A stretch of DNA of 37,948 nucleotides, from IMG/VR virus record IMGVR_UViG_2939162341_000002; one strand, 5' to 3'. A program made the position numbers and the translations under genes. The DNA is from a virus. Taxonomy: Duplodnaviria; Heunggongvirae; Uroviricota; Caudoviricetes. How positions within the stretch are numbered: the first letter of the stretch is position 1; each line of letters opens with the position of its first letter. Positions 1-10,424 of the stretch are shown piece by piece. Below the pieces are notes generated by a model. The model saw only the letters and a list, made by a program, of their open reading frames with translations, was not told the DNA's origin and searched no databases.

Positions 1-19
1 CTATTTGATAAATATTAAA

Positions 20-1315
20 TTAATTTTTCATTGCTTCGTTATGGGGCATGGTTGGGGCAAACTCGCTTAACTGTGTATTTAACAAAGCTACCTGTGCATT
101 ATTGTTTTCAGACATCCATTTTCCGTATACCTGAAATACCATTTGCGCATCTGCATGGCCCATCTGGTTTGCTATAAATGCCGGGTTAGCACCAGCTGTC
201 AGCGACCAGCAGGCATAAGTATGTCTCGACTGATATGATTTTCGATGGCGGAGTCCGGCACGTTTTATCGCTGCGTCCCACATCTGCCTTATTGAGTCAA
301 CGGTAAAATGGTCACCATAATTTTTTACTCTCGCTGACACTTCAGGTTGAAAAACAAAGGTGCATTTTTGTTTTTCTGTTCTGCCATACTCTCTGAGGTG
401 AACATCAATGATATGCTCTTTGCTCAGTCTCGTTAATGTCATCTGACTCCGGAGAGCGTCGATTGCTGGCTTAATAAGATGAATGACCCGATTGGTTCCC
501 GCCTGTGTTTTTGGTACCGTGAAACGGTCTTTTGCTAAATTTCTCCTGATCATCATTGTTCCATTTTTCAGATCTATGTCCTCCCATCCAAGTGCACACA
601 GCTCACCAGGGCGAACGCCAGTATAAACAGAAACACACCATAAATTTTTTGCTTGCTGATTTCTGCATGCATCGATAAGACGGATAAATTCCTCCCGCGA
701 AAGAGGATCCGGAATGGTTCTTGATTCCTTTAATGGCGAGATCCCCTTAAACGGATTATCTGCCAGGTAACCGTTATCAACACCAAACTGGAACACGGCG
801 TTAAGATTTGTCATGTAATTATTTACAGTTACAGCCGATCTCCCTGGTTGTGTAACAATATAGTTACTTTTGGGGATCTGGTATCCAGTCAGTAGCTCTT
901 TACGAACCTCCAGTAATTTTTCTTTATTAATCGATGAGGCAAGATTTTTTTCACCGATTATGCTCAGGATATTTTTGATGACGGCACGGTATGTGTTGAG
1001 TGATGTTTTGGAGACTTCAGTTTCTTTCAGTGCCAGAAATTTTTCAGCCAGTTCTTTTATGGTTAAATCTTGTCGGGCCTCACCAAATTTTTCCAGATTG
1101 CGTGAGGAGGGAAACTGTTTTGCATAGTCGAAAACACCAGTTTTTATTGCGTAACAAACAGAGGAGCGTAGTTCACCTGCAACGCGCCTGTTTTTTGCTG
1201 TGTCAGGAACCCCCAGATTTTCCCTGACTCTTACGCCTTTATAAACAAACCAGATACGTAATTTCCCTCCATGGTTTTCCACGCCTGTCGGATATTTCAT
1301 TTCAACTTCTCTCAT
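20..1315 (-). CDS. int: Phage integrase, tyrosine recombinase (lambda Int family)
   Basis: 431-aa ORF; C-terminal catalytic region with R...H..R..Y pattern (RHTYACWSLTAGANPAFIANQMGHADAQMVFQVYGKW); sits at prophage edge reading outward, next to an excisionase-like gene. Native start may be the internal MKYPTG. Confidence 0.9.
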   Translation of the reverse strand: MREVEMKYPTGVENHGGKLRIWFVYKGVRVRENLGVPDTAKNRRVAGELRSSVCYAIKTGVFDYAKQFPSSRNLEKFGEARQDLTIKELAEKFLALKETEVSKTSLNTYRAVIKNILSIIGEKNLASSINKEKLLEVRKELLTGYQIPKSNYIVTQPGRSAVTVNNYMTNLNAVFQFGVDNGYLADNPFKGISPLKESRTIPDPLSREEFIRLIDACRNQQAKNLWCVSVYTGVRPGELCALGWEDIDLKNGTMMIRRNLAKDRFTVPKTQAGTNRVIHLIKPAIDALRSQMTLTRLSKEHIIDVHLREYGRTEKQKCTFVFQPEVSARVKNYGDHFTVDSIRQMWDAAIKRAGLRHRKSYQSRHTYACWSLTAGANPAFIANQMGHADAQMVFQVYGKWMSENNNAQVALLNTQLSEFAPTMPHNEAMKN

Positions 1316-1334
1316 TAGTTAGTGTGGCTTTTAG

Positions 1335-1586
1335 TCAAGTAAGATGACGTCTTGGTCTCGCTGATGCCTGGCGCTCAATCCAGCGATCAATTTCTTCCAG
1401 GTTGTAAAAGCATGGACTGTTATCCCATGGCATACCGTCATGAGCGACATGCTTATATTCCCTTCCTTCCATAAACGATTTTTCCCGGGCCTTTTTTAAC
1501 GTACCTTTTTTTATTCCTTTCAGCGCAATTAACTGCTCTTCGGATACCCATTTGCCGGGAGAGACAATCATGATTACTTCGCTCAT
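1335..1586 (-). CDS. xis: Excisionase-like DNA-binding protein (Xis)
   Basis: 83-aa ORF immediately upstream of int on the same strand; shares the GREY segment with lambda Xis as I recall it; small basic protein in the canonical int-xis arrangement. Confidence 0.7.
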   Translation of the reverse strand: MSEVIMIVSPGKWVSEEQLIALKGIKKGTLKKAREKSFMEGREYKHVAHDGMPWDNSPCFYNLEEIDRWIERQASARPRRHLT

Positions 1587-1658
1587 CGATTTCTTTATCT
1601 CTTACATCAGACGAGCGCCGGTTGCAGAATACCAGTCACAACCGGCGACAGTTGAACA

Positions 1659-3587
1659 TTAAGAATCAGCCTGACTCGGGATCAGTTTTTGCCAGATAAC
1701 TGAAACGTATTTTGCCTGGTAACGGGCGTCATCAAGTGCATTATGGCGCTCACCTTCGAATGGAATAGCCGTTCTGGCATCGAAGTCTATGGCTTTCCCC
1801 AGCTCAACGATTGTGCGTACATCGCGATCGTTGTAGTAACGCCACGGGCAGGGGATCCCCTGCCGTTCGTATGAACGGCGCAAAATCGTGTTGTCGAAGT
1901 TGGCTCCATTTCCCCAAACCTGAACAAAAAATTCACCGGAGTTTTCGTCGATAAATTCCCGCAATTGTAACAGTGCATCATCTAACGGGATTTCATCGGT
2001 CATAATGGCAGATTGCGATTCGCGTGATTGCTTAAGCCACCATTTAATGGTGTCCCGATCAATGACTCCGCCAGCAGTTTCCAGATCGATAGTCTTACTA
2101 AATTCCGGTCCCATATCTCCGGTTTGCGGATCGAAAAATATTGCACCTATTGAGATGATCGGGGCATCAGGATTTTTTCCCATGGTTTCAAGGTCGATCA
2201 TTAGATGGTCACACGTCCTGCTGGTGGATGTGATTTCGTGATGACCGTTCACCTTAATTGGGTGATCTGCCGTCTCGCCAGTTTCATTATCGCTATTGTG
2301 ATGCTGATTGCCGCCAGTGTTCTCCTTGTGTGGATGTTCAGCGCCTTCCATTTCCTCCGGATCATCTTCCTGAACTTCAACCTGATACTCTTCATCGAAT
2401 GTTTCTTGGTATGTTGCGTCGCCCATCACCGCGCCACAATCAGGGCAGTTGCCGCCGCCGGTCTGACCGCAGGCGGTGCAGGCTTTTTCCACTTCCTGGT
2501 GCGCCACTGGTTCAGGCTGTTTCGTTTCTGGCTCGTTTTGTAACGCATTTGGACTGTTTTGTTCCGCTTTTTGGTAGTTCCGTTCCGATTCATGCTGGTT
2601 CTGGTTCACAGAATCGCGGGTCTGGATCCCCTTAACCCATTTCGGATCATTCGGGTCACTAATCCCTTCAACAAATTCACCACGTGATGCAGCAAGCAAC
2701 TTATCGGCGTCAGGCTGGCTGATATTGGCTGCCTGCATAATTTTGTTTACTTCGTCAGCGGTAACTTTTATCGGCTCTGGTTGTTCTGAATCTTCAGCGG
2801 TATCTACATTTTGCGGTAAGCCCGTGTATGTGCCATTTTTTCGGGCAAAATATTCTTCTTTTGTGATTTCAGTGGCGCCAGCAGCCAGTGCCTTATCCAG
2901 ACCAGAAAGTTTGTTTGCGCGACCGTATTTTTCTCCGTCCTTATCTGCGAAGAGGAAATAGAACGGCCCCTCACGCTCTACAGATGGTTCAGCTTCCGGC
3001 GCGGTTTCATTTTTTGGGATATCAGATACCTCAGTTTCCACTGCATCAGTTTGTGTTTCTGATGACTGGAGAACATCAACAGTGCCCAGGTCTGTTTCTT
3101 CATTCTCAAACACGCCCTTTGTCGTCAGGTATTCGCAGATATATTTGTTCAGTGCTACGGGATCTTTGTGAATGTCGATCGGACGCTCACGGACAAGGCC
3201 AAAAATAGTTTGGCGGTCGTAGCGAAGGGCATCAGGCTGTTTGCGCATTGATGCCGAGATACGCTTCCAGTCTTCGCGGTCGTTGTCGATAACTTCTTTT
3301 TTTGCCCAGCGATGGATGCTGCCGTCAATGTTTCCGGCATCCACATCACCAGGCCAGAGAGCGTAGGCCAGTTCGTCATCCAGTGTTTTCCATGTCTGCT
3401 TGTATTCGCGATGAATGGCAGCAATGACCGGGCTGATTTTTCCTGTTGAATTTTCAGTGTACTGTTGATTGGCTCTGGCGCGGGCGAGATCAACAACAGA
3501 CGTGTATTTTCCGGTTTCCTTGCGTTCACCTTCGCGACGTTTTTTCCAGATGCGCATCTCTGCCTGAATTTCGGGTGATGCTGCCAA
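1659..3587 (-). CDS. Prophage exonuclease with C-terminal DnaQ-like 3'-5' exonuclease (DEDDh) domain; 5' end runs into IS1, so likely truncated or promoter-less
   Basis: C-terminal region has DEDDh-type motifs (MIDLETMG, NGANFDNTILRR, HNALDDARYQAKY); central CxxC...CxxC zinc-ribbon (CTACGQTGGGNCPDCGAV). The ORF-finder start (TTG) lies inside the IS1 terminal repeat, so the native 5' end is lost or displaced. Confidence 0.75.
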   Translation of the reverse strand: MAASPEIQAEMRIWKKRREGERKETGKYTSVVDLARARANQQYTENSTGKISPVIAAIHREYKQTWKTLDDELAYALWPGDVDAGNIDGSIHRWAKKEVIDNDREDWKRISASMRKQPDALRYDRQTIFGLVRERPIDIHKDPVALNKYICEYLTTKGVFENEETDLGTVDVLQSSETQTDAVETEVSDIPKNETAPEAEPSVEREGPFYFLFADKDGEKYGRANKLSGLDKALAAGATEITKEEYFARKNGTYTGLPQNVDTAEDSEQPEPIKVTADEVNKIMQAANISQPDADKLLAASRGEFVEGISDPNDPKWVKGIQTRDSVNQNQHESERNYQKAEQNSPNALQNEPETKQPEPVAHQEVEKACTACGQTGGGNCPDCGAVMGDATYQETFDEEYQVEVQEDDPEEMEGAEHPHKENTGGNQHHNSDNETGETADHPIKVNGHHEITSTSRTCDHLMIDLETMGKNPDAPIISIGAIFFDPQTGDMGPEFSKTIDLETAGGVIDRDTIKWWLKQSRESQSAIMTDEIPLDDALLQLREFIDENSGEFFVQVWGNGANFDNTILRRSYERQGIPCPWRYYNDRDVRTIVELGKAIDFDARTAIPFEGERHNALDDARYQAKYVSVIWQKLIPSQADS

Positions 3588-3628
3588 CTTACTGATTTAG
3601 TGTATGATGGTGTTTTTGAGGTGCTCCA

Positions 3629-3904
3629 GTGGCTTCTGTTTCTATCAGCTGTCCCTCCTGTTCAGCTACTGACGGGGTGGTGCGTAACGGCAAAAGCACC
3701 GCCGGACATCAGCGCTATCTCTGCTCTCACTGCCGTAAAACATGGCAACTGCAGTTCACTTACACCGCTTCTCAACCCGGTACGCACCAGAAAATCATTG
3801 ATATGGCCATGAATGGCGTTGGATGCCGGGCAACTGCCCGCATTATGGGCGTTGGCCTCAACACGATTTTACGTCACTTAAAAAACTCAGGCCGCAGTCG
3901 GTAA
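3629..3904 (+). CDS. insA: IS1 InsA
   Basis: 91-aa ORF with Cys-rich N-terminus ([28 protein letters not shown]), recognised as IS1 InsA from memory. Confidence 0.93.
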
Positions 3905-4326
3905 CCTCGCGCATACAACCGGGCAGCGATGTGATTGTCTGCGCTGAAATGGACGAACAGTGGGGCTACGTAGGTGCTAAATCACGTCAGCGCTGGCTGT
4001 TTTACGCGTATGACAGGATACGGAGGACGGTTGTGGCGCACGTCTTCGGTGAACGCACTCTGGCCACACTGGAGCGTCTTATGAGCCTGCTGTCGGCCTT
4101 TGACGTGGTGATATGGATGACGGATGGCTGGCCGCTGTATGAATCCCGCCTGAAGGGAAAGCTGCACGTAATCAGCAAGCGTTACACTCAGCGCATTGAG
4201 CGACATAATCTGAATCTGAGACAACATCTGGCAAGGCTGGGACGGAAGTCACTGTCGTTCTCAAAATCGGTGGAGCTGCATGACAAAGTCATCGGGCATT
4301 ATCTGAACATAAAACACTATCAGTAA
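3823..4326 (+). CDS. insB: IS1 InsB (transposase, made as InsAB' by -1 frameshift)
   Basis: 167-aa ORF overlapping the insA 3' end in the -1 frame, characteristic of IS1. Confidence 0.93.
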
Positions 4327-4387
4327 GTTGGAGTCATTACCGAATCGCAACGTAGTTATTATCATATAACAGCTTGTTTCCTGATTT

Positions 4388-4417
4388 AGCCAGCCTCCCC
4401 AAAGGCTGGTTTTTTTC
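4388..4417 (+). terminator. Rho-independent terminator (hairpin plus T7 run)
   Basis: AGCCAGCCT-CCCCAAA-AGGCTGG followed by TTTTTTT, directly right of IS1. Confidence 0.6.
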
Positions 4418-4444
4418 TAATAAGTATCATTTCGGGTGGGGATT

Positions 4445-4969
4445 TTATTGTTTAACCCATAATAGTTCATTGACATTGAATCCCAACTTTTGAGCGGTAC
4501 GCACATAGTCTGCTTTTACATTATCTGGAATAGTTTGGGTCCTTGCCAGAATCCATAGGTATTCTCTGTTCGGACCACTGACAAGAGCATACTTATACTC
4601 ATCATCCAGCTTGATTACATTATAGCCACCATAGAAGGGGCCAAAAAACGAAACTTTCAACGCTGCAGTTTTAGTATCTCCAGTAAAGTATGCTTTACCT
4701 TCGCTCTCGCTCCATTTGTTTTTCGTTGGATCGTATCCACGGTTAAGTACGCGAATCCCTCCGTCGTTCCGTTTTTCATAAGTAGCGCTGACCTGTTCCA
4801 GACCACGTTCGAACCAGTTCTCGAGGCGAGCTATTTCATACCATTTTCCGAGGTAGCGGTTGGCGTCAAAATTTGTAATCGGCTGCACACCTTTAGGTGG
4901 TGTCGGGGCCTTACATGCTATAAGAGTGAAAGAGAGTGCAATGCCAGTCAACACAGGCCATAACTTCAT
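4445..4969 (-). CDS. Outer-membrane lipoprotein of the bacterial lipocalin family (Blc-like paralog)
   Basis: 174 aa; lipoprotein signal peptide with lipobox (LIAC); lipocalin motifs shared with E. coli Blc as recalled (FDANRYLGKWYEIAR, GKAYFTG, ALKVSFFGPFYGGYNVI). Confidence 0.85.
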   Translation of the reverse strand: MKLWPVLTGIALSFTLIACKAPTPPKGVQPITNFDANRYLGKWYEIARLENWFERGLEQVSATYEKRNDGGIRVLNRGYDPTKNKWSESEGKAYFTGDTKTAALKVSFFGPFYGGYNVIKLDDEYKYALVSGPNREYLWILARTQTIPDNVKADYVRTAQKLGFNVNELLWVKQ

Positions 4970-5161
4970 AATAAATCCTGTACTTTTGATAGTTGAGAGT
5001 AAGTATGAAAGATAGATGAGTACGACCGATCACTTAAAGAACTTTCCTACTATATTAGGAATAGTCAATAACAGAAAAATTGTCAGTGATGAAGCCAGAA
5101 AGGCAATTTAGTCCGTGCACTACAAAGTTTATGTGTTAATGAATTAGTCAAGGGGGAGGAA

Positions 5162-6121
5162 ATGATAAAAAAACCTGTGATTGGGATCAGCGGTTGTTTG
5201 GGCGGTTCTGCTGTTCGTTTTGATGGTGGTCACAAAAGAGATGACTTTTTAATGGACAAATTAGTGGAATGGGTAACATTCAGACCAGTATGTCCGGAAA
5301 TGGCTATAGGGCTGCCAGTTCCGCGTCCTGCTCTACGACTTGTGCGCTCGAAGCAAGGAAATATACGGATGTGTTTCAGCCACGACCAGAATGAGGATGT
5401 GACAGAGAGAATGACAGAGTTTAGTCGTTCTTATATGGACAAATTAAAGGATGTATCGGGGTTTGTGGTTTGTGCTAAATCTCCCAGCTGTGGCATGGAG
5501 CGCGTGCGTGTCTATGGTGAAAATGGTAATCGAGGTCGTAAAGATGGAGTGGGACTATTTACGAGCACTTTGATGGAAAAGTTTTCCTGGCTACCGGTTG
5601 AAGAGGATGGGCGATTACATGATCCAGTGCTTCGTGAGAATTTTATTGAAAGAGTTTTTGCTTTGCATGAGCTCAATCACCTTTACAAGGAGAAATTATC
5701 AAGAAGAGAGTTATTAGCTTTTCATAGTCGTTATAAGCTTCAGTTGTTGGCGCATAGCCAGGCAGGCTATAAAGATATGGGACCATTTGTGGCTGCAATA
5801 CACGAGTGGGCGGACCTTGAATCATACTTTGAGGTGTATCGTGATAATCTGATGGCGATTCTCAGAAAACCAGCATCACGTAAAAATCACACGAATGTGC
5901 TGATGCATATACAGGGGTATTTTAGTAATTACTTAAGTACACGCCAGCGTAAAGAGTTGAGCGAGGTTATACTTAACTATCGCTTTGGCACATTGCCTCT
6001 TCTTGCGCCGTTGACTCTGCTGAAGCATTATCTGGGTGAGTATCCTAATGATTACTTGCTTACACAGAATTACTTCGATCCCTATCCGGAAGAACTGGCT
6101 CTAAGACTGATGGTGAATTAA
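5162..6121 (+). CDS. DUF523 (TudS-like thiouracil desulfidase fold) fused to DUF1722 (YbgA-like) protein
   Basis: N-terminal Cys motifs typical of DUF523 (GISGCLGG, VCPEMAIGLPVPRP, KSPSCG); C-terminal half resembles YbgA (NHTNVLMHIQGYF, LPLLAPLTLLKHYL); strong RBS AGGGGGAGGA 2 nt upstream of the ATG. Confidence 0.7.
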   Translation: MIKKPVIGISGCLGGSAVRFDGGHKRDDFLMDKLVEWVTFRPVCPEMAIGLPVPRPALRLVRSKQGNIRMCFSHDQNEDVTERMTEFSRSYMDKLKDVSGFVVCAKSPSCGMERVRVYGENGNRGRKDGVGLFTSTLMEKFSWLPVEEDGRLHDPVLRENFIERVFALHELNHLYKEKLSRRELLAFHSRYKLQLLAHSQAGYKDMGPFVAAIHEWADLESYFEVYRDNLMAILRKPASRKNHTNVLMHIQGYFSNYLSTRQRKELSEVILNYRFGTLPLLAPLTLLKHYLGEYPNDYLLTQNYFDPYPEELALRLMVN

Positions 6122-6527
6122 CTGTATGCGATATCATCTGAAAGTGATGAGTTCCTGTATGCAGGATATTTACAATCGTAAAAACTACGCTATGATGCTC
6201 ATAGTGTCAGTTTTTATAAAAATCCTGTTCACGCTAAAGAAAACATTGAGATGCAATTTAATGTTGGTAAACATACCAGCCCCAAACGATTTTATTCAAT
6301 CTGTTTTTATATGAAGATATTTCAAGTGAATATTAAGAGCATATAATATTATTATTGCACGCAGCTATTATAATATAACAGATTAGTTTAATGATTTGTT
6401 TTTTGTGAGTTAAACACATGGTTTTATAGTTGTGATGCAATGAGATTTTCCTTATTGTTGAACTGGCGAATATTGATTTTCCACCTATACTTACCTGGTG
6501 TAACCCCAATGATATCAGGTGGATAAT

Positions 6528-7241
6528 ATGCCATACATATGTTCTATCATTTTGGTGTTGAACTCGTTTGGTGTCCGAATTGGTAAAGAAGATATTTTGT
6601 TTAAAAAAGGAAATGCTGTCCTCATTGAATACAATTTAAAAGATCTTTTTTCGTCAAATACAGATCATCTAATGATCGTAGATGTTGAGGAGAAAACAGT
6701 TAATGATTTCTTTAAAAACTACACACTCTCACCTTTTTCTGTAAGAAGGTTTTATCCGTCATACTTGATAGTAGAATGTGAAGATTTTTCATTGTTAAAG
6801 AACTTGGTTGCATGCTTGAATTGTGATAGCAAAACCGTGGATGTAGTTAGAAATCAAATATCACTTGCATGTCTTGCTGTCTTATCTTCAGAGAAAATAG
6901 TGCAAAGTTTTTTGTTCGGAAGTCTTAATAACTTAGGTTGTAAAGTTAAGGCTATTATTCACTCGGATATCTCAGCGTCATGGAGACTTTGTGATATATC
7001 TTCAAGATTATATATGAGCGAGAGTTTGTTAAAAAGAAAATTAAAAGACGAAGGATTATCGTTTAGTAAATTAATTCTTGAAGAACGAATGATGATGGCG
7101 CAAAGATTATTGATCTACAGTAACCATACTGTCGGCAAGGTGGCGGGAATATGCGGGTATGACAATGCATCATATTTTGTAAGTGTTTTTAGAAGATATT
7201 TTGGTGTGCCTCCGCACCAATATTTATCAAGATTTTCTTAG
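6528..7241 (+). CDS. AraC/XylS-family transcriptional regulator (AppY/PatE-like), AT-rich
   Basis: C-terminal AraC-type HTH region (MAQRLLIYSNHTVGKVAGICGYDNASYFVSVFRRYFGVPPHQY); N-terminus resembles AppY-type prophage regulators; visibly AT-rich. ORF-finder start is GTG at 6519; ATG at 6528 has RBS AGGTGG. Confidence 0.8.
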   Translation: MPYICSIILVLNSFGVRIGKEDILFKKGNAVLIEYNLKDLFSSNTDHLMIVDVEEKTVNDFFKNYTLSPFSVRRFYPSYLIVECEDFSLLKNLVACLNCDSKTVDVVRNQISLACLAVLSSEKIVQSFLFGSLNNLGCKVKAIIHSDISASWRLCDISSRLYMSESLLKRKLKDEGLSFSKLILEERMMMAQRLLIYSNHTVGKVAGICGYDNASYFVSVFRRYFGVPPHQYLSRFS

Positions 7242-7310
7242 AAGATATGATGTGATGGTATTTTATAAAGTTATTTTTTGAAGTGTAAGATTATACGATA
7301 TTTTTAGCTA

Positions 7311-7340
7311 CGCCAGAATAATTGCTGGCGTTTTTCTTTT
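7311..7340 (+). terminator. Rho-independent terminator upstream of holin (tR'-like position)
   Basis: CGCCAG-AATAATTG-CTGGCG hairpin followed by TTTTTCTTTTT, about 90 bp upstream of the holin ATG. Confidence 0.55.
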
Positions 7341-7431
7341 TGAATAGATGTTCGGGCCTTACGCTAATGTAACTTCTTTCCTTCTTCGAACCAAACCGTG
7401 TACACCATCCGTTATCTGCGGAGGTGAGGCT

Positions 7432-7647
7432 ATGAAATCCATGGATAAGTTAACAACGGGCATCGCCTACAGCACCTCTGCAGGCAGTGCTGGCTACTGG
7501 TTTTTACAGTTGCTCGATAAAGTCACACCCTCACAGTGGGCGGCAATAGGTGTATTGGGTAGTCTGGTATTTGGCATGCTGACGTATCTGACAAACCTTT
7601 ATTTCAAGATTAAAGAAGACAGGCGTAAGGCTGCGAGAGGAGAGTAA
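7432..7647 (+). CDS. Class II holin (phage 21 / Stx-phage S type) with dual-start motif
   Basis: 71 aa from ATG at 7432 with RBS GGAGGTGAGG upstream; begins MKSMDK (Met1-Lys-Ser-Met4); two hydrophobic segments and a charged C-terminus ([13 protein letters not shown]). The ORF extends upstream to 7348 but that part lacks an RBS. Confidence 0.85.
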
Positions 7648-7651
7648 GACA

Positions 7652-7870
7652 ATGACTAAAAACTATGAACTGATTGTGAAAGGGACCCGCAATTTTGAGA
7701 ATAAAGTTACGGTAATCTTAACGTTACAGGACAAAGAACGTTTTGCCGGTGAAATTTTTGATCTGAACATCAACCTTGAGCGACTTGAAGGAGCTGGTTT
7801 GGATTATTATGAAGTTACTGCGGTAAAACATGCCAAACAGTTCTTGAGAGATTTGGCTGAAAAAATATAA
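7652..7870 (+). CDS. Hypothetical protein (72 aa) translationally coupled to holin
   Basis: ATG 4 nt after the holin stop; RBS AGAGGAGAG lies inside the holin 3' end; AT-rich; no recognisable domain. Confidence 0.5.
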   Translation: MTKNYELIVKGTRNFENKVTVILTLQDKERFAGEIFDLNINLERLEGAGLDYYEVTAVKHAKQFLRDLAEKI

Positions 7871-7888
7871 AGCGGCATTACTGCCGCT
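7871..7888. terminator. Bidirectional hairpin between convergent genes
   Basis: AGCGGCA-TTAC-TGCCGCT perfect 7-bp stem, A-rich on the left and T-containing on the right, between the stops of the convergent 72-aa and 98-aa genes. Confidence 0.55.
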
Positions 7889-7894
7889 TAGAAA

Positions 7895-8191
7895 TTATTC
7901 AATGTCTGGTAGCTTATCAAAGATTTCGGATACTCTTATATTTGTCATATAAGCAAATTGAGATTCTGCCAGCTCTTTGGGTGATTTTCCCGCTTTTTCT
8001 GAGCCAAAAATTGTTTCTAAAGCCAGCATGTTATATTTGAGAACCTCTTCTCGAGTTTTACCTGATAATTTTGCGGTAACAGCAATATAAAAAGGCAACA
8101 CTTTATCCAGAAGGTCGTTGTGTTTTGTCAGTTGTGGTAATACCACATCAAGTTGCTTACTGATTGGTTTGAATGGATCTATACCGTTCAT
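7895..8191 (-). CDS. Hypothetical protein (98 aa), transcribed opposite to the late operon
   Basis: Clean ATG start with upstream AAGGGA; 128-bp divergent intergenic region shared with the endolysin gene; no recognisable domain; predicted soluble. Confidence 0.5.
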   Translation of the reverse strand: MNGIDPFKPISKQLDVVLPQLTKHNDLLDKVLPFYIAVTAKLSGKTREEVLKYNMLALETIFGSEKAGKSPKELAESQFAYMTNIRVSEIFDKLPDIE

Positions 8192-8318
8192 AGTTACATT
8201 CCCTTATCAGAGGTAATCAGCCATCCCCCCTTTATTACACACGCCAGTATCCACCACTGACGGGCTGAGTGCTTAACATATCTAGAGATTAGAAACTGAT
8301 AAATCCTGATAAATATCC

Positions 8319-9346
<1,028 letters not shown>

Positions 9347-9709
9347 ATTAATATTAAATCGGATTATTTTTAGCGCTGAATGTGAAATTTAAATAAAAAG
9401 GACTCTTCCATGAGTCAAAATCCTTGAAATCTTAAGGGTAAGATAAAAGGTCATTAGACAGAATGACACGTTTTATTAATAAATAAAGCTATTGTTTCAT
9501 TCGTGTGTTTTTCTTTACAAAAGTAATCCTTGCTATGGTTGGTTAATCATGCGTTAATGGTGTTCTGGTTTGTTACAAAATTATCTGAAGCAGTCATTGT
9601 TATAATTTTATTATTTGTACCTCTTGAGATTTCCTTGTTGGTTTTTCTCTCTGATATTTTTTTTCGGACCATTCTGCCCAAGGGCTAACTTCTTCAAAAG
9701 GTAATAATG

Positions 9710-9922
9710 ATGTCTAACAAAATGACTGGTTTAGTGAAATGGTTTAACCCTGAAAAAGGTTTTGGTTTCATCACGCCGAAAGATGGTAGCAAAGATGTGT
9801 TTGTCCATTTCTCAGCTATTCAGAGCAACGATTTCAAAACGTTAACTGAGAATCAGGAAGTCGAATTTGGTATTGAGAACGGACCTAAAGGCCCCGCGGC
9901 TGTTCATGTTGTGGCACTTTGA
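9710..9922 (+). CDS. cspI: Cold-shock protein, CspA family (CspI-like)
   Basis: 70 aa; [38 protein letters not shown] matches CspA-family RNP motifs; roughly 360 bp upstream non-coding leader as in cold-shock genes. Confidence 0.9.
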
Positions 9923-10121
9923 GGTAGAAAATATTACAAACCATATTCACTTTAGATGCCCGTGTTGCCATGGTTCTCAGTATAGAACATCATCTTTTGA
10001 TGTTTCTGACAGGAATCCTTTCGGGGCAAAATGTATCTTTTGTAAATCAATGATGATTACATTTGATAATATTTCACAATACTTAAATGTTAGCCGTCTG
10101 TCGTTAGATTTAAGAAAGTGA
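9906..10121 (+). CDS. ynfN: Small Cys-rich protein (YnfN-like, Qin-type)
   Basis: Contains [19 protein letters not shown]...CIFCKS; the first in-frame ATG (9906) overlaps the cspI 3' end, so the true start is uncertain. Confidence 0.5.
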
Positions 10122-10127
10122 AAATGA

Positions 10128-10150
10128 AGGCTCCTTCGGGAGCTTTTTTG
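10128..10150 (+). terminator. Rho-independent terminator after the ynfN-like gene
   Basis: AGGCTCC-TTCG-GGAGCTT stem followed by TTTTTT. Confidence 0.6.
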
Positions 10151-10193
10151 CTTAGTGTCTAGTCGATGGATACTCACATATTACGGTAACATT

Positions 10194-10424
10194 ATGAAAA
10201 AAATAATAGTTTTTTTTAACTCTGAACCAGCAATGGTAGTGCCAGTGATGACCGGAGTTAACACCATCATGCGTGAATATCCAAATGGCGAAACAACACA
10301 CCTCACTGTAATGGCTGCAGGGTTTCCATCTCTGACCGGAGATCATAAAGTCATTTATGTAGCAGCGGATCGGCATGTAACTTCAGAAGAAATTCTGGAA
10401 GCAGCAATGAGACTCTTGAATTGA
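10194..10424 (+). CDS. Hypothetical small protein (76 aa from first ATG)
   Basis: ORF with ATG at 10194 (ORF-finder start is GTG at 10155); weak RBS; possibly related to Qin ynfO/ydfO-type genes but not confidently recognised. Confidence 0.4.
   Translation: MKKIIVFFNSEPAMVVPVMTGVNTIMREYPNGETTHLTVMAAGFPSLTGDHKVIYVAADRHVTSEEILEAAMRLLN

Follow-up and report, generated by a model that had tools for sequence, protein, structure and literature searches.

A putative two-gene moron in the lysis region of a Qin-like Escherichia coli prophage, and a conserved leader that recurs before other lambdoid accessory genes

Introduction

It is mainly through morons that prophages change their hosts, and most of the small ones are without a known function or regulation. 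By the definition of Juhala et al., as given in PMC3594210, a moron is extra DNA that carries its own promoter and terminator and differs in GC content. The locus described here raises the question of what two small genes are for that lie between the holin and the endolysin gene of a prophage, one of them transcribed against the late operon. It belongs to a stretch of 37,948 nucleotides (IMG/VR virus record IMGVR_UViG_2939162341_000002), referred to as the window, which represents an E. coli Qin-like defective prophage with IS elements and with its early region missing. An earlier note, made from the sequence alone, had suggested either a moron that could be expressed in the lysogen or an accessory to lysis timing, and considered the pair the most plausible place for an undescribed function in the window.

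Results

Layout of the locus

The segment at 7652-8318 and its neighbours carry the following features.

7432..7647, plus strand: gene of an S21-type class II pinholin (essD/essQ-like); Pfam PF04971 'Bacteriophage P21 holin S', E = 2.3e-34
7639..7642, plus strand: Shine-Dalgarno sequence GGAG for the 72-aa gene, within the 3' end of the holin gene; sequence reading
7652..7870, plus strand: gene of a 72-aa, core-only DUF1327 (YdfR-family) protein, the sense-strand partner; Pfam DUF1327
7870..7889, minus strand: intrinsic-terminator-like hairpin; terminator scan
7895..8191, minus strand: 98-aa gene, here called X, antisense to the late operon; homologues, dN/dS, phrog_25324
8191..8276, minus strand: predicted structured 5' leader of X; covariance model, covariation
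8275..8318, minus strand: promoter-proximal conserved block, adjoining the endolysin start codon; alignments of X upstream regions
8319-8852, plus strand: SAR-type lysozyme gene; Pfam PF00959, PHROG endolysin
8849-9346, plus strand: Rz-like spanin gene; Pfam DUF2514, PHROG Rz-like spanin

The pinholin gene is labelled essD in identical E. coli records. It is followed after 4 nt (7648-7651) by the 72-aa gene, whose GGAG at 7639-7642 stands 9 nt ahead of the ATG at 7652, and the 72-aa gene is positioned for translation with the holin from the late transcript. That transcript must traverse X in antisense to get to the endolysin and spanin genes. The two ORFs, their coordinates and their arrangement are as the earlier note had read them, and the same is true of the 4-nt gap, of the ribosome-binding site inside the holin gene and of the AT-richness of both ORFs, with a GC content of 36-39% over 7650-8200 against 46-52% in the holin and endolysin genes. 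The upstream region that it had assigned to X, between the starts of X and of the endolysin gene, is likewise present, at 127 bp (8192-8318) rather than 128 bp. Directly upstream of the holin gene lie an integrase gene, an exonuclease fragment, IS1 copies, a YbgA gene and an AraC-type gene; among the genes read upstream of the holin, none was recognisable as a Q-like antiterminator gene.

The sense-strand gene encodes a DUF1327 core

Neither protein had been credited with a recognisable domain, and profile searches on both had been proposed. For the 72-aa protein these returned Pfam PF07041 (DUF1327) with E = 2.2e-26 and 92.3 bits against a cut-off of 25, whereas X matched nothing in Pfam and nothing of known function, so that the statement holds for X alone. 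The DUF1327 match covers profile positions 1-72 of 93, leaving the C-terminal part of the profile uncovered, and 42 of the 72 residues (58%) are identical to residues 1-72 of K-12 YdfR, which has a 31-residue tail beyond the point at which the window protein ends. The AF2 model has a pLDDT of 90 and a beta-beta-beta-alpha fold.

DUF1327 is a small family, with only 52 clusters in a full HMMER scan of 1.8 billion representatives. The conserved part of its members is always the N-terminal 69-72 residues, the tails beyond it are mutually unrelated, and stand-alone proteins of 71-76 aa recur among diverged members (31-38% identity); the 72-aa form therefore appears to be the core of the family and not obviously a broken gene. 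The dN/dS of this core is 0.16-0.46 in most comparisons and reaches 0.74 in the most divergent pairs. Each of the two exact proteins, of 72 and 98 aa, occurs on about 1000 or more contigs. As a YdfR/DUF1327 gene, the 72-aa gene belongs to the regular content of S21-type lysis cassettes, without a known role in lysis.

The one source of functional data that came to light is a 2026 study of K-12 YdfR (PMC13232886). Its residues 1-72, the very span of the window protein, were recovered three times in a two-hybrid screen; YdfR was reported to interact with the N-terminal, catalytic half of RNase E and to co-purify with RNase E residues 1-598. It also brings down RNA, although a contaminant could not be excluded as the RNA binder, and its overexpression altered few transcripts (PMC13232886).

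X is a constrained gene of narrow distribution

Among 5.8 billion proteins, homologues of X form 16 clusters, all from Enterobacteria, with 57-99% identity and lengths of 92-100 aa apart from two entries of 133 and 57 aa. Where synonymous sites are not yet saturated, dN/dS is 0.08-0.13, which amounts to strong purifying selection and marks X as a real, constrained gene. It is held by about 58 of 5426 complete E. coli genomes, and one cultured-phage record, Evi, carries the same cassette in the order S-DUF1327-X-R-Rz. X belongs to phrog_25324, a group of unknown function, and found no match in Pfam, NCBIfam, PADLOC or the PDB, nor by fold. Its AF2 model consists of four helices (pLDDT 82), and its highest 19-residue Kyte-Doolittle average is 0.78, against 0.55 for the 72-aa protein and 1.62 for the holin; X has no hydrophobic segment and the 72-aa protein no membrane-spanning one. 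X is thus predicted to be a soluble four-helix protein. A P-loop pattern (SGKT) and a helix-turn-helix motif in X were considered and rejected, since the pattern is not conserved and has no support from the fold.

Hairpin and promoter signals

A hairpin with an 8-bp stem (7870-7877/7882-7889) and a 4-nt loop lies between the two stop codons. The earlier note had described it as a perfect 7-bp bidirectional hairpin shared by the two genes; it does stand between them, with a stem one pair longer, but the bidirectional reading finds no support, as the consensus scan gives a terminator for just one strand, the minus strand, with the T-run tail TATATTTTTT. The plus-strand sequence after the stem, AGAAATTATT, contains no T-run. 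With a T-run on one strand alone, the hairpin looks like a terminator of X that would permit late transcription to pass.

At the other end of X, a consensus scan of the minus strand found no sigma-70-type promoter, only weaker -10-like hexamers. One of these, TATGTT at 8275-8280, lies 6 nt 5' of a UCAGCC motif in the leader, and every leader-bearing locus that was read has a TAnnnT hexamer 6-8 nt ahead of UCAGCC. Because the hexamer falls below the threshold of the scan, we only infer a promoter for X. The conserved block at 8275..8318 holds a direct repeat, ATTTATCAG(G), and an inverted repeat; across loci the conserved block upstream of X contains ATATCAGG and an inverted repeat.

X and its partner at other sites

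Loci with X homologues were read from NCBI, Logan, GTDB and IMG/VR and represent nine diverged lineages (individual loci are given L numbers). In all nine, X runs antisense to the phage late operon and converges on a small gene oriented with the late genes, the two stop codons being 13-29 nt apart. A GC-rich hairpin lies between X and its partner wherever the gap was read, that is, in the window and in three tail-cluster loci. The partner is a DUF1327 protein of 71-72 aa in four lineages and a 93-95-aa protein, here called Y, in five. The pair occupies six or more positions, in lysis regions as well as in tail gene clusters.

X with DUF1327, window and Evi: between S and R
X with DUF1327, Cronobacter-type loci (L008-L010): after an Rz-like gene
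X with DUF1327, L033/L034: between tail genes I and J
X with DUF1327, L035-L037: upstream of the holin gene
X with Y: between tail genes H and M
X with Y: between tail genes M and L
X with Y: between tail genes I and J
X with Y, Buttiauxella: upstream of the pinholin gene

A survey of whether the pair co-occurs in other prophage lysis cassettes, as had been proposed, thus finds it there and in the tail clusters of other prophages too (X and its partners in L005-L007, L011, L029 and L033), and the 72-aa DUF1327 gene itself accompanies X into tail clusters (L033/L034). So wide a spread over lysis and tail sites makes a lysis-specific role unlikely and suggests a mobile two-gene unit.

The X of L033, which faces a DUF1327 gene, is 81% identical to that of L005, which faces Y at the same site between I and J; partners would therefore have been swapped while X was kept. 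Overall, X is conserved at 55-100% against 17-93% for the partners. The Y family comprises five clusters in the big protein database and is found essentially only with these modules. Y has no Pfam match, and comparison with DUF1327 by hhalign and hmmsearch gave E = 0.1, then 0.03-0.04 with more sequences, which is suggestive only; a Y-like protein of phage SW-37 matched with 4.7 bits in the same comparison. Neither the 72-aa protein nor X nor Y matched a defence model in PADLOC-DB at E up to 1.

A predicted structured leader upstream of X

Conservation extends over about 125 bp upstream of X, also where the loci compared are saturated at synonymous sites. Within this region, comparison of the loci delineates a leader of about 85 nt, whose elements in the window, all on the minus strand, are as follows.

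8263-8268 with 8217-8222: P1, the invariant complementary hexamers UCAGCC and GGCUGA
8242-8262: P2, a hairpin with covariation
8227-8231 with 8208-8212: P3, AGGGG with CUCUG, enclosing the GGCUGA segment
8200-8205: Shine-Dalgarno sequence AAGGGA

Read along the X strand, the order is UCAGCC, the P2 hairpin of variable sequence, a variable A/U-rich linker, P3 around GGCUGA, and the Shine-Dalgarno sequence. The window leader matches the covariance model with 80.4 bits (E about 1e-17) and is the sole copy in the window.

In a MAFFT alignment of 13 sequences, 7 of the 8 pairs of P2 are changed on both sides while 95% of the cells remain paired, a covariation score that none of 500 shuffles reached; controls slid along the alignment were 25-44% paired. 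An alignment of 19 sequences to the covariance model gives the same picture of P2, as an alignment fitted to that model. U-G wobbles, with 7 cells at one pair, agree with the X-sense strand. P3 takes several versions (GGAGG:CCUCU, CAGAG:CUCUG, AGAGAG:CUCUCU, CCGA:UCGG and AUGGGG:CCCCAU) and is paired in just 71-76% of the alignment cells, partly as a result of register slips, while P1 is uninformative for covariation because it is invariant. The folding energy of the window leader as a single sequence is unremarkable (z = -0.15), so the case for structure is a comparative one. We read the compensatory changes in P2 as the mark of a structured RNA, in which P1 and P3 would form either a pseudoknot or alternative folds.

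The leader has no relevant match in Rfam 15 at E up to 10 over 7300-8700, where matches were at chance level only, and a literature search for its conserved strings found nothing. A mini-ORF within it (ATG-GCT-GAT-TAC-CTC-TGA) was rejected, as neither the ATG nor the frame is conserved in L007, L020 and L014. An anti-Shine-Dalgarno role of CCUCU was also considered, and its pairing to the Shine-Dalgarno sequence proved inconsistent across sequences. A scan of IMG/VR with a degenerate DNA pattern of the leader gave two high-GC chance matches, which were discarded.

The same leader before other cargo genes

The leader is not confined to X. In lambdoid phages it stands before at least six small cargo genes that are unrelated, and in other E. 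coli prophages (L004, NC101 and REL606) it lies between DUF1327 and lysozyme genes, ahead of unrelated antisense genes. Five of the phages that carry it (HK022, ES18, HK633, mEp213 and SW-37) were not used in building the covariance model and match it with E below 1e-15.

L004: leader before a 95-aa cargo
NC101: leader before a 79-aa cargo
REL606: leader before an 86-aa cargo
HK022: leader ahead of gp23 ('srb'), site between tail genes I and J, 89.4 bits
ES18: leader ahead of gp25, site between M and L, convergent partner gp24 (DUF1327), 79.5 bits
HK633: leader before gp65
mEp213: leader before gene 072 (mEp213_072)
Salmonella phage SW-37: leader present

ES18 gp25 shares 55% identity with the 95-aa L004 cargo, and none of the cargo proteins contains a Pfam domain. 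Unannotated Y-like ORFs face the cargo in HK633 and SW-37. HK022 gp23 and mEp213_072 have the leader with no DUF1327 or Y partner detected, and K-12 YdfR and many O157 DUF1327 copies have neither antisense cargo nor leader; the link between partner and leader is therefore not obligatory.

Discussion

We lean, with moderate confidence, to the view that the segment at 7652-8318 is a two-gene cassette of the moron type and not part of the lysis machinery. In K-12 Qin, essQ, ydfR and rrrQ follow one another closely, the last two overlapping, without an antisense gene or a leader, and the X segment of the window is by this comparison extra DNA. It has its own terminator-like hairpin with a T-run and a base composition unlike that of its neighbours, and homologues of X invariably lie within late operons as antisense insertions, so that the moron suggestion of the earlier note suits the minus-strand gene. 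For the other gene K-12 offers a parallel: there too a DUF1327 gene directly follows an S21-type holin gene with a spacing of 4 nt (essQ-ydfR).

The kind of element is already known, as morons are an established class and DUF1327 is a named family. A close relative in architecture is the gp24/gp25 pair of phage ES18, annotated as 'possible moron; function unknown', in which a short DUF1327 gene is likewise convergent with an antisense small gene that carries the leader, at a locus with annotated terminators; it differs in lying between tail genes M and L and in its cargo, gp25, which is unrelated to X. The moron genes 22/23 of HK022 ('srb'), whose product is labelled moron gene product in the HK022 record, resemble X as an antisense small gene in a late operon behind the same leader motif, whereas their cargo bears no relation to X, neither a DUF1327 nor a Y partner was detected and the site lies between I and J. 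The pair in the window is in this respect only half undescribed, with one protein in a named family and two relatives in architecture already annotated as morons. Apparently new are the X family, which has an obligate partner, the movement of this pair among lysis and tail sites, and the shared structured leader without an Rfam entry.

The position of the pair invites a different explanation, in which one or both proteins tune the S21 pinholin/SAR-endolysin pathway as a timing factor or a regulator of the endolysin. The genes lie between S and R, the first is coupled to the holin gene, DUF1327 genes are frequent after S21-type holins in Qin-like and Stx prophages, and a genetic screen cited in PMC13232886 links ydfR to envelope integrity. 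Even so, the same X, with the same kind of partner (DUF1327-72 or Y), sits between tail genes H and M, M and L, or I and J, far from any lysis gene, and the DUF1327 gene of ES18 also stands among tail genes. Neither protein has a membrane-spanning segment, with hydropathy maxima well below that of the holin, and X, being antisense, cannot be co-expressed with S and R. We therefore consider a role in lysis highly unlikely, and the suggestion of a lysis-timing accessory is not borne out for X. A simpler proposal still, that the locus is decaying or non-functional DNA, with the 72-aa gene as a truncated pseudogene of ydfR and X as an ORF that is spurious or dying, would suit a defective prophage with IS elements and a lost early region, and a protein that is without the C-terminal tail of K-12 YdfR. 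It is barely credible and largely refuted by the strong purifying selection on X, by the presence of the cassette in the phage record Evi, and by the DUF1327 family itself, in which the tails are mutually unrelated, the 72-aa core is the conserved unit and stand-alone forms of 71-76 aa occur in lineages only 31-38% identical.

Two further proposals concern what the partners do. X could be an effector of interference or defence, or a toxic one, expressed from the prophage, and the DUF1327 core or Y a late-made antidote that provides self-immunity. The convergent pairing, strictly conserved in nine lineages, the lower conservation of the partners relative to X, as for fast-evolving antidotes, and the near restriction of Y to such modules would all be consistent with this, and morons of tail clusters such as HK97 gp15 are exclusion genes (PMC3594210). 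However, the proteins have no PADLOC match and resemble neither toxins nor antitoxins, the genes converge in 9 of 9 lineages rather than forming a co-directional type II toxin-antitoxin operon, and the same partner families stand beside unrelated cargo (ES18 gp25, HK633 gp65), which is better explained by recognition of the leader or the architecture; on balance we regard an effector and its antidote as unlikely. The other proposal, about equally doubtful, is that the DUF1327 core, and Y by analogy, acts as an adaptor that binds RNase E as well as the leader RNA, and that its late expression leads to destruction of the cargo mRNA. Against this stand fold matches that are weak and generic, the few transcripts altered by YdfR overexpression (PMC13232886), the DUF1327 genes with no leader nearby and the leaders with no partner, and the E values of 0.03-0.1 between Y and DUF1327, which fall short of establishing homology.

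We tentatively propose the following course of events for the moron-type cassette. A promoter of its own would drive X without dependence on the late operon, for instance in lysogens, and the folded leader would control the translation or stability of X. During lytic growth the late transcript would run antisense over X and yield the partner protein, and X would be switched off; made from that transcript, the partner is well placed to do so. It may act by binding X, or by directing RNase E to the common leader, a route suggested by the reported binding of RNase E and RNA by YdfR residues 1-72. As DUF1327 and Y accompany different cargo genes, we lean to the leader or the architecture as the common denominator. 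In the window, with the early region lost and no Q-like gene recognisable, X would be the only gene of the cassette with signals of its own.

For the cargo itself, a benefit to the lysogen or interference between phages would be the most likely function by analogy, although any such assignment is a guess, since X resembles nothing of known function. A functional parallel for X in tail clusters is the superinfection-exclusion moron HK97 gp15, which is also small, lies in a lambdoid tail operon and benefits the lysogen (PMC3594210); it is an inner-membrane protein, whereas X is predicted to be soluble, the two have no sequence relation, and no sign of the leader or of a partner was seen for gp15. 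For the partner, the RapZ-GlmZ-RNase E system offers an analogy of working principle only, in which both the catalytic half of RNase E and an RNA with hairpins are bound by one small protein. YdfR has been grouped with RapZ-like interactors (PMC13232886), while RapZ and DUF1327 have no relation in sequence or fold. Carried furthest, this line of thought would make the 85-nt or so leader a cis-regulatory RNA of a new class that gates interchangeable antisense cargo; late-made DUF1327/Y switches, recruiting RNase E or binding RNA, would recognise it and silence the cargo on entry into lytic growth. We put this forward as a speculation with decidedly little chance of proving correct.

The locus joins three strands: the YdfR/DUF1327 family with its lead to RNase E, the constrained antisense gene X, and a leader common to the morons of HK022, ES18, HK633 and mEp213. 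If the leader is not a switch, the cassette is an ordinary moron. If it is a genuine one, a whole group of prophage accessory genes would share one control element, and the role of YdfR would become directly testable; should DUF1327/Y switches indeed read the leader and silence the cargo, this would be the first function for YdfR and the DUF1327 family.

Prophage context of the lysis cassette

The early region is absent from the prophage 5′ of the holin gene (window 1-7241), and the holin is directly preceded by the following genes:

20-1315, minus strand, integrase
1659-3587, minus strand, exonuclease fragment
3823-4969, IS1-like copies
5162-6121, YbgA-family gene
6519-7241, AraC-type regulator

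The same HTH-essD junction is found in REL606. Judged by gene content alone, no Q-like antiterminator gene is recognisable in window 1-7241, and the late operon is therefore probably silent in this prophage. Approximately 100 nt 5′ of the holin start lies a strong terminator-like hairpin (7310-7331, ACGCCAG...CTGGCGT followed by a T-run), whose Rfam matches to the sRNA terminators of RyhB and Hrs12 are weak and at chance level; the hairpin may terminate transcription of the AraC-type gene or represent a tR′-like site. At the other end of the cassette, 3′ of the spanin gene, is the cold-shock and small-protein cluster cspI, ynfQ and ynfN (9707-10424), placed as in the Qin prophage of K-12. According to the YdfR paper (PMC13232886), cold induction has been reported for the essQ-ydfR cluster.

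An inverted repeat upstream of the X leader

Upstream of the structured RNA leader of X, the 98-aa minus-strand gene, and between a ATATCAGG box and a -10-like hexamer, lies an inverted repeat, ATATCAGGRT ... AYCCCTGGNTAT (within 8277-8318). It recurs in the homologous blocks of five compared loci (L004, L006 and L039-L041), and across these and the window one inner pair covaries. A dimeric regulator could use the repeat as its operator; alternatively, if the transcript begins farther 5′, the repeat could fold into an additional RNA hairpin.

Alternative cargo and known or possible relatives of the partner proteins

In Stx1a phages and related prophages, the gap between holin and lysozyme genes is occupied by long DUF1327 fusion proteins:

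L016:575-1366, 263 aa
L044:2312-3103, 263 aa

The lysozyme gene there is preceded by no more than a partial match to the leader, weak at 22.8 bits. The 95-aa cargo of the E. coli prophage locus L004, which is unrelated to X, weakly matches the PADLOC candidate PDC-S51 (E = 2.5e-5). At L035, where the DUF1327-72/X module lies upstream of the holin, it adjoins a hicA/hicB-like toxin-antitoxin pair (L035:4214-4855); the site looks like a hotspot for accessory genes.

Three further minus-strand ORFs resemble one or other sense-strand partner of X, DUF1327 or the 93-95-aa Y:

L029:4529-4741, 70 aa, MDYQIEDITAF...EEKIFTEAKKQLKQLIAGF, flanked by the tape-measure gene and gene M
L041:1636-1983, unannotated, Y-like, phage HK633
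L045:2133-2465, unannotated, Y-like, Salmonella phage SW-37

The first has a DUF1327-like strand-strand-strand-helix sequence pattern. Both Y-like ORFs are convergent with leader-driven cargo genes, and their 'TLEGY.QRA..YA' helix, intermediate in appearance between Y and DUF1327, hints that the two partner families may be distant relatives.
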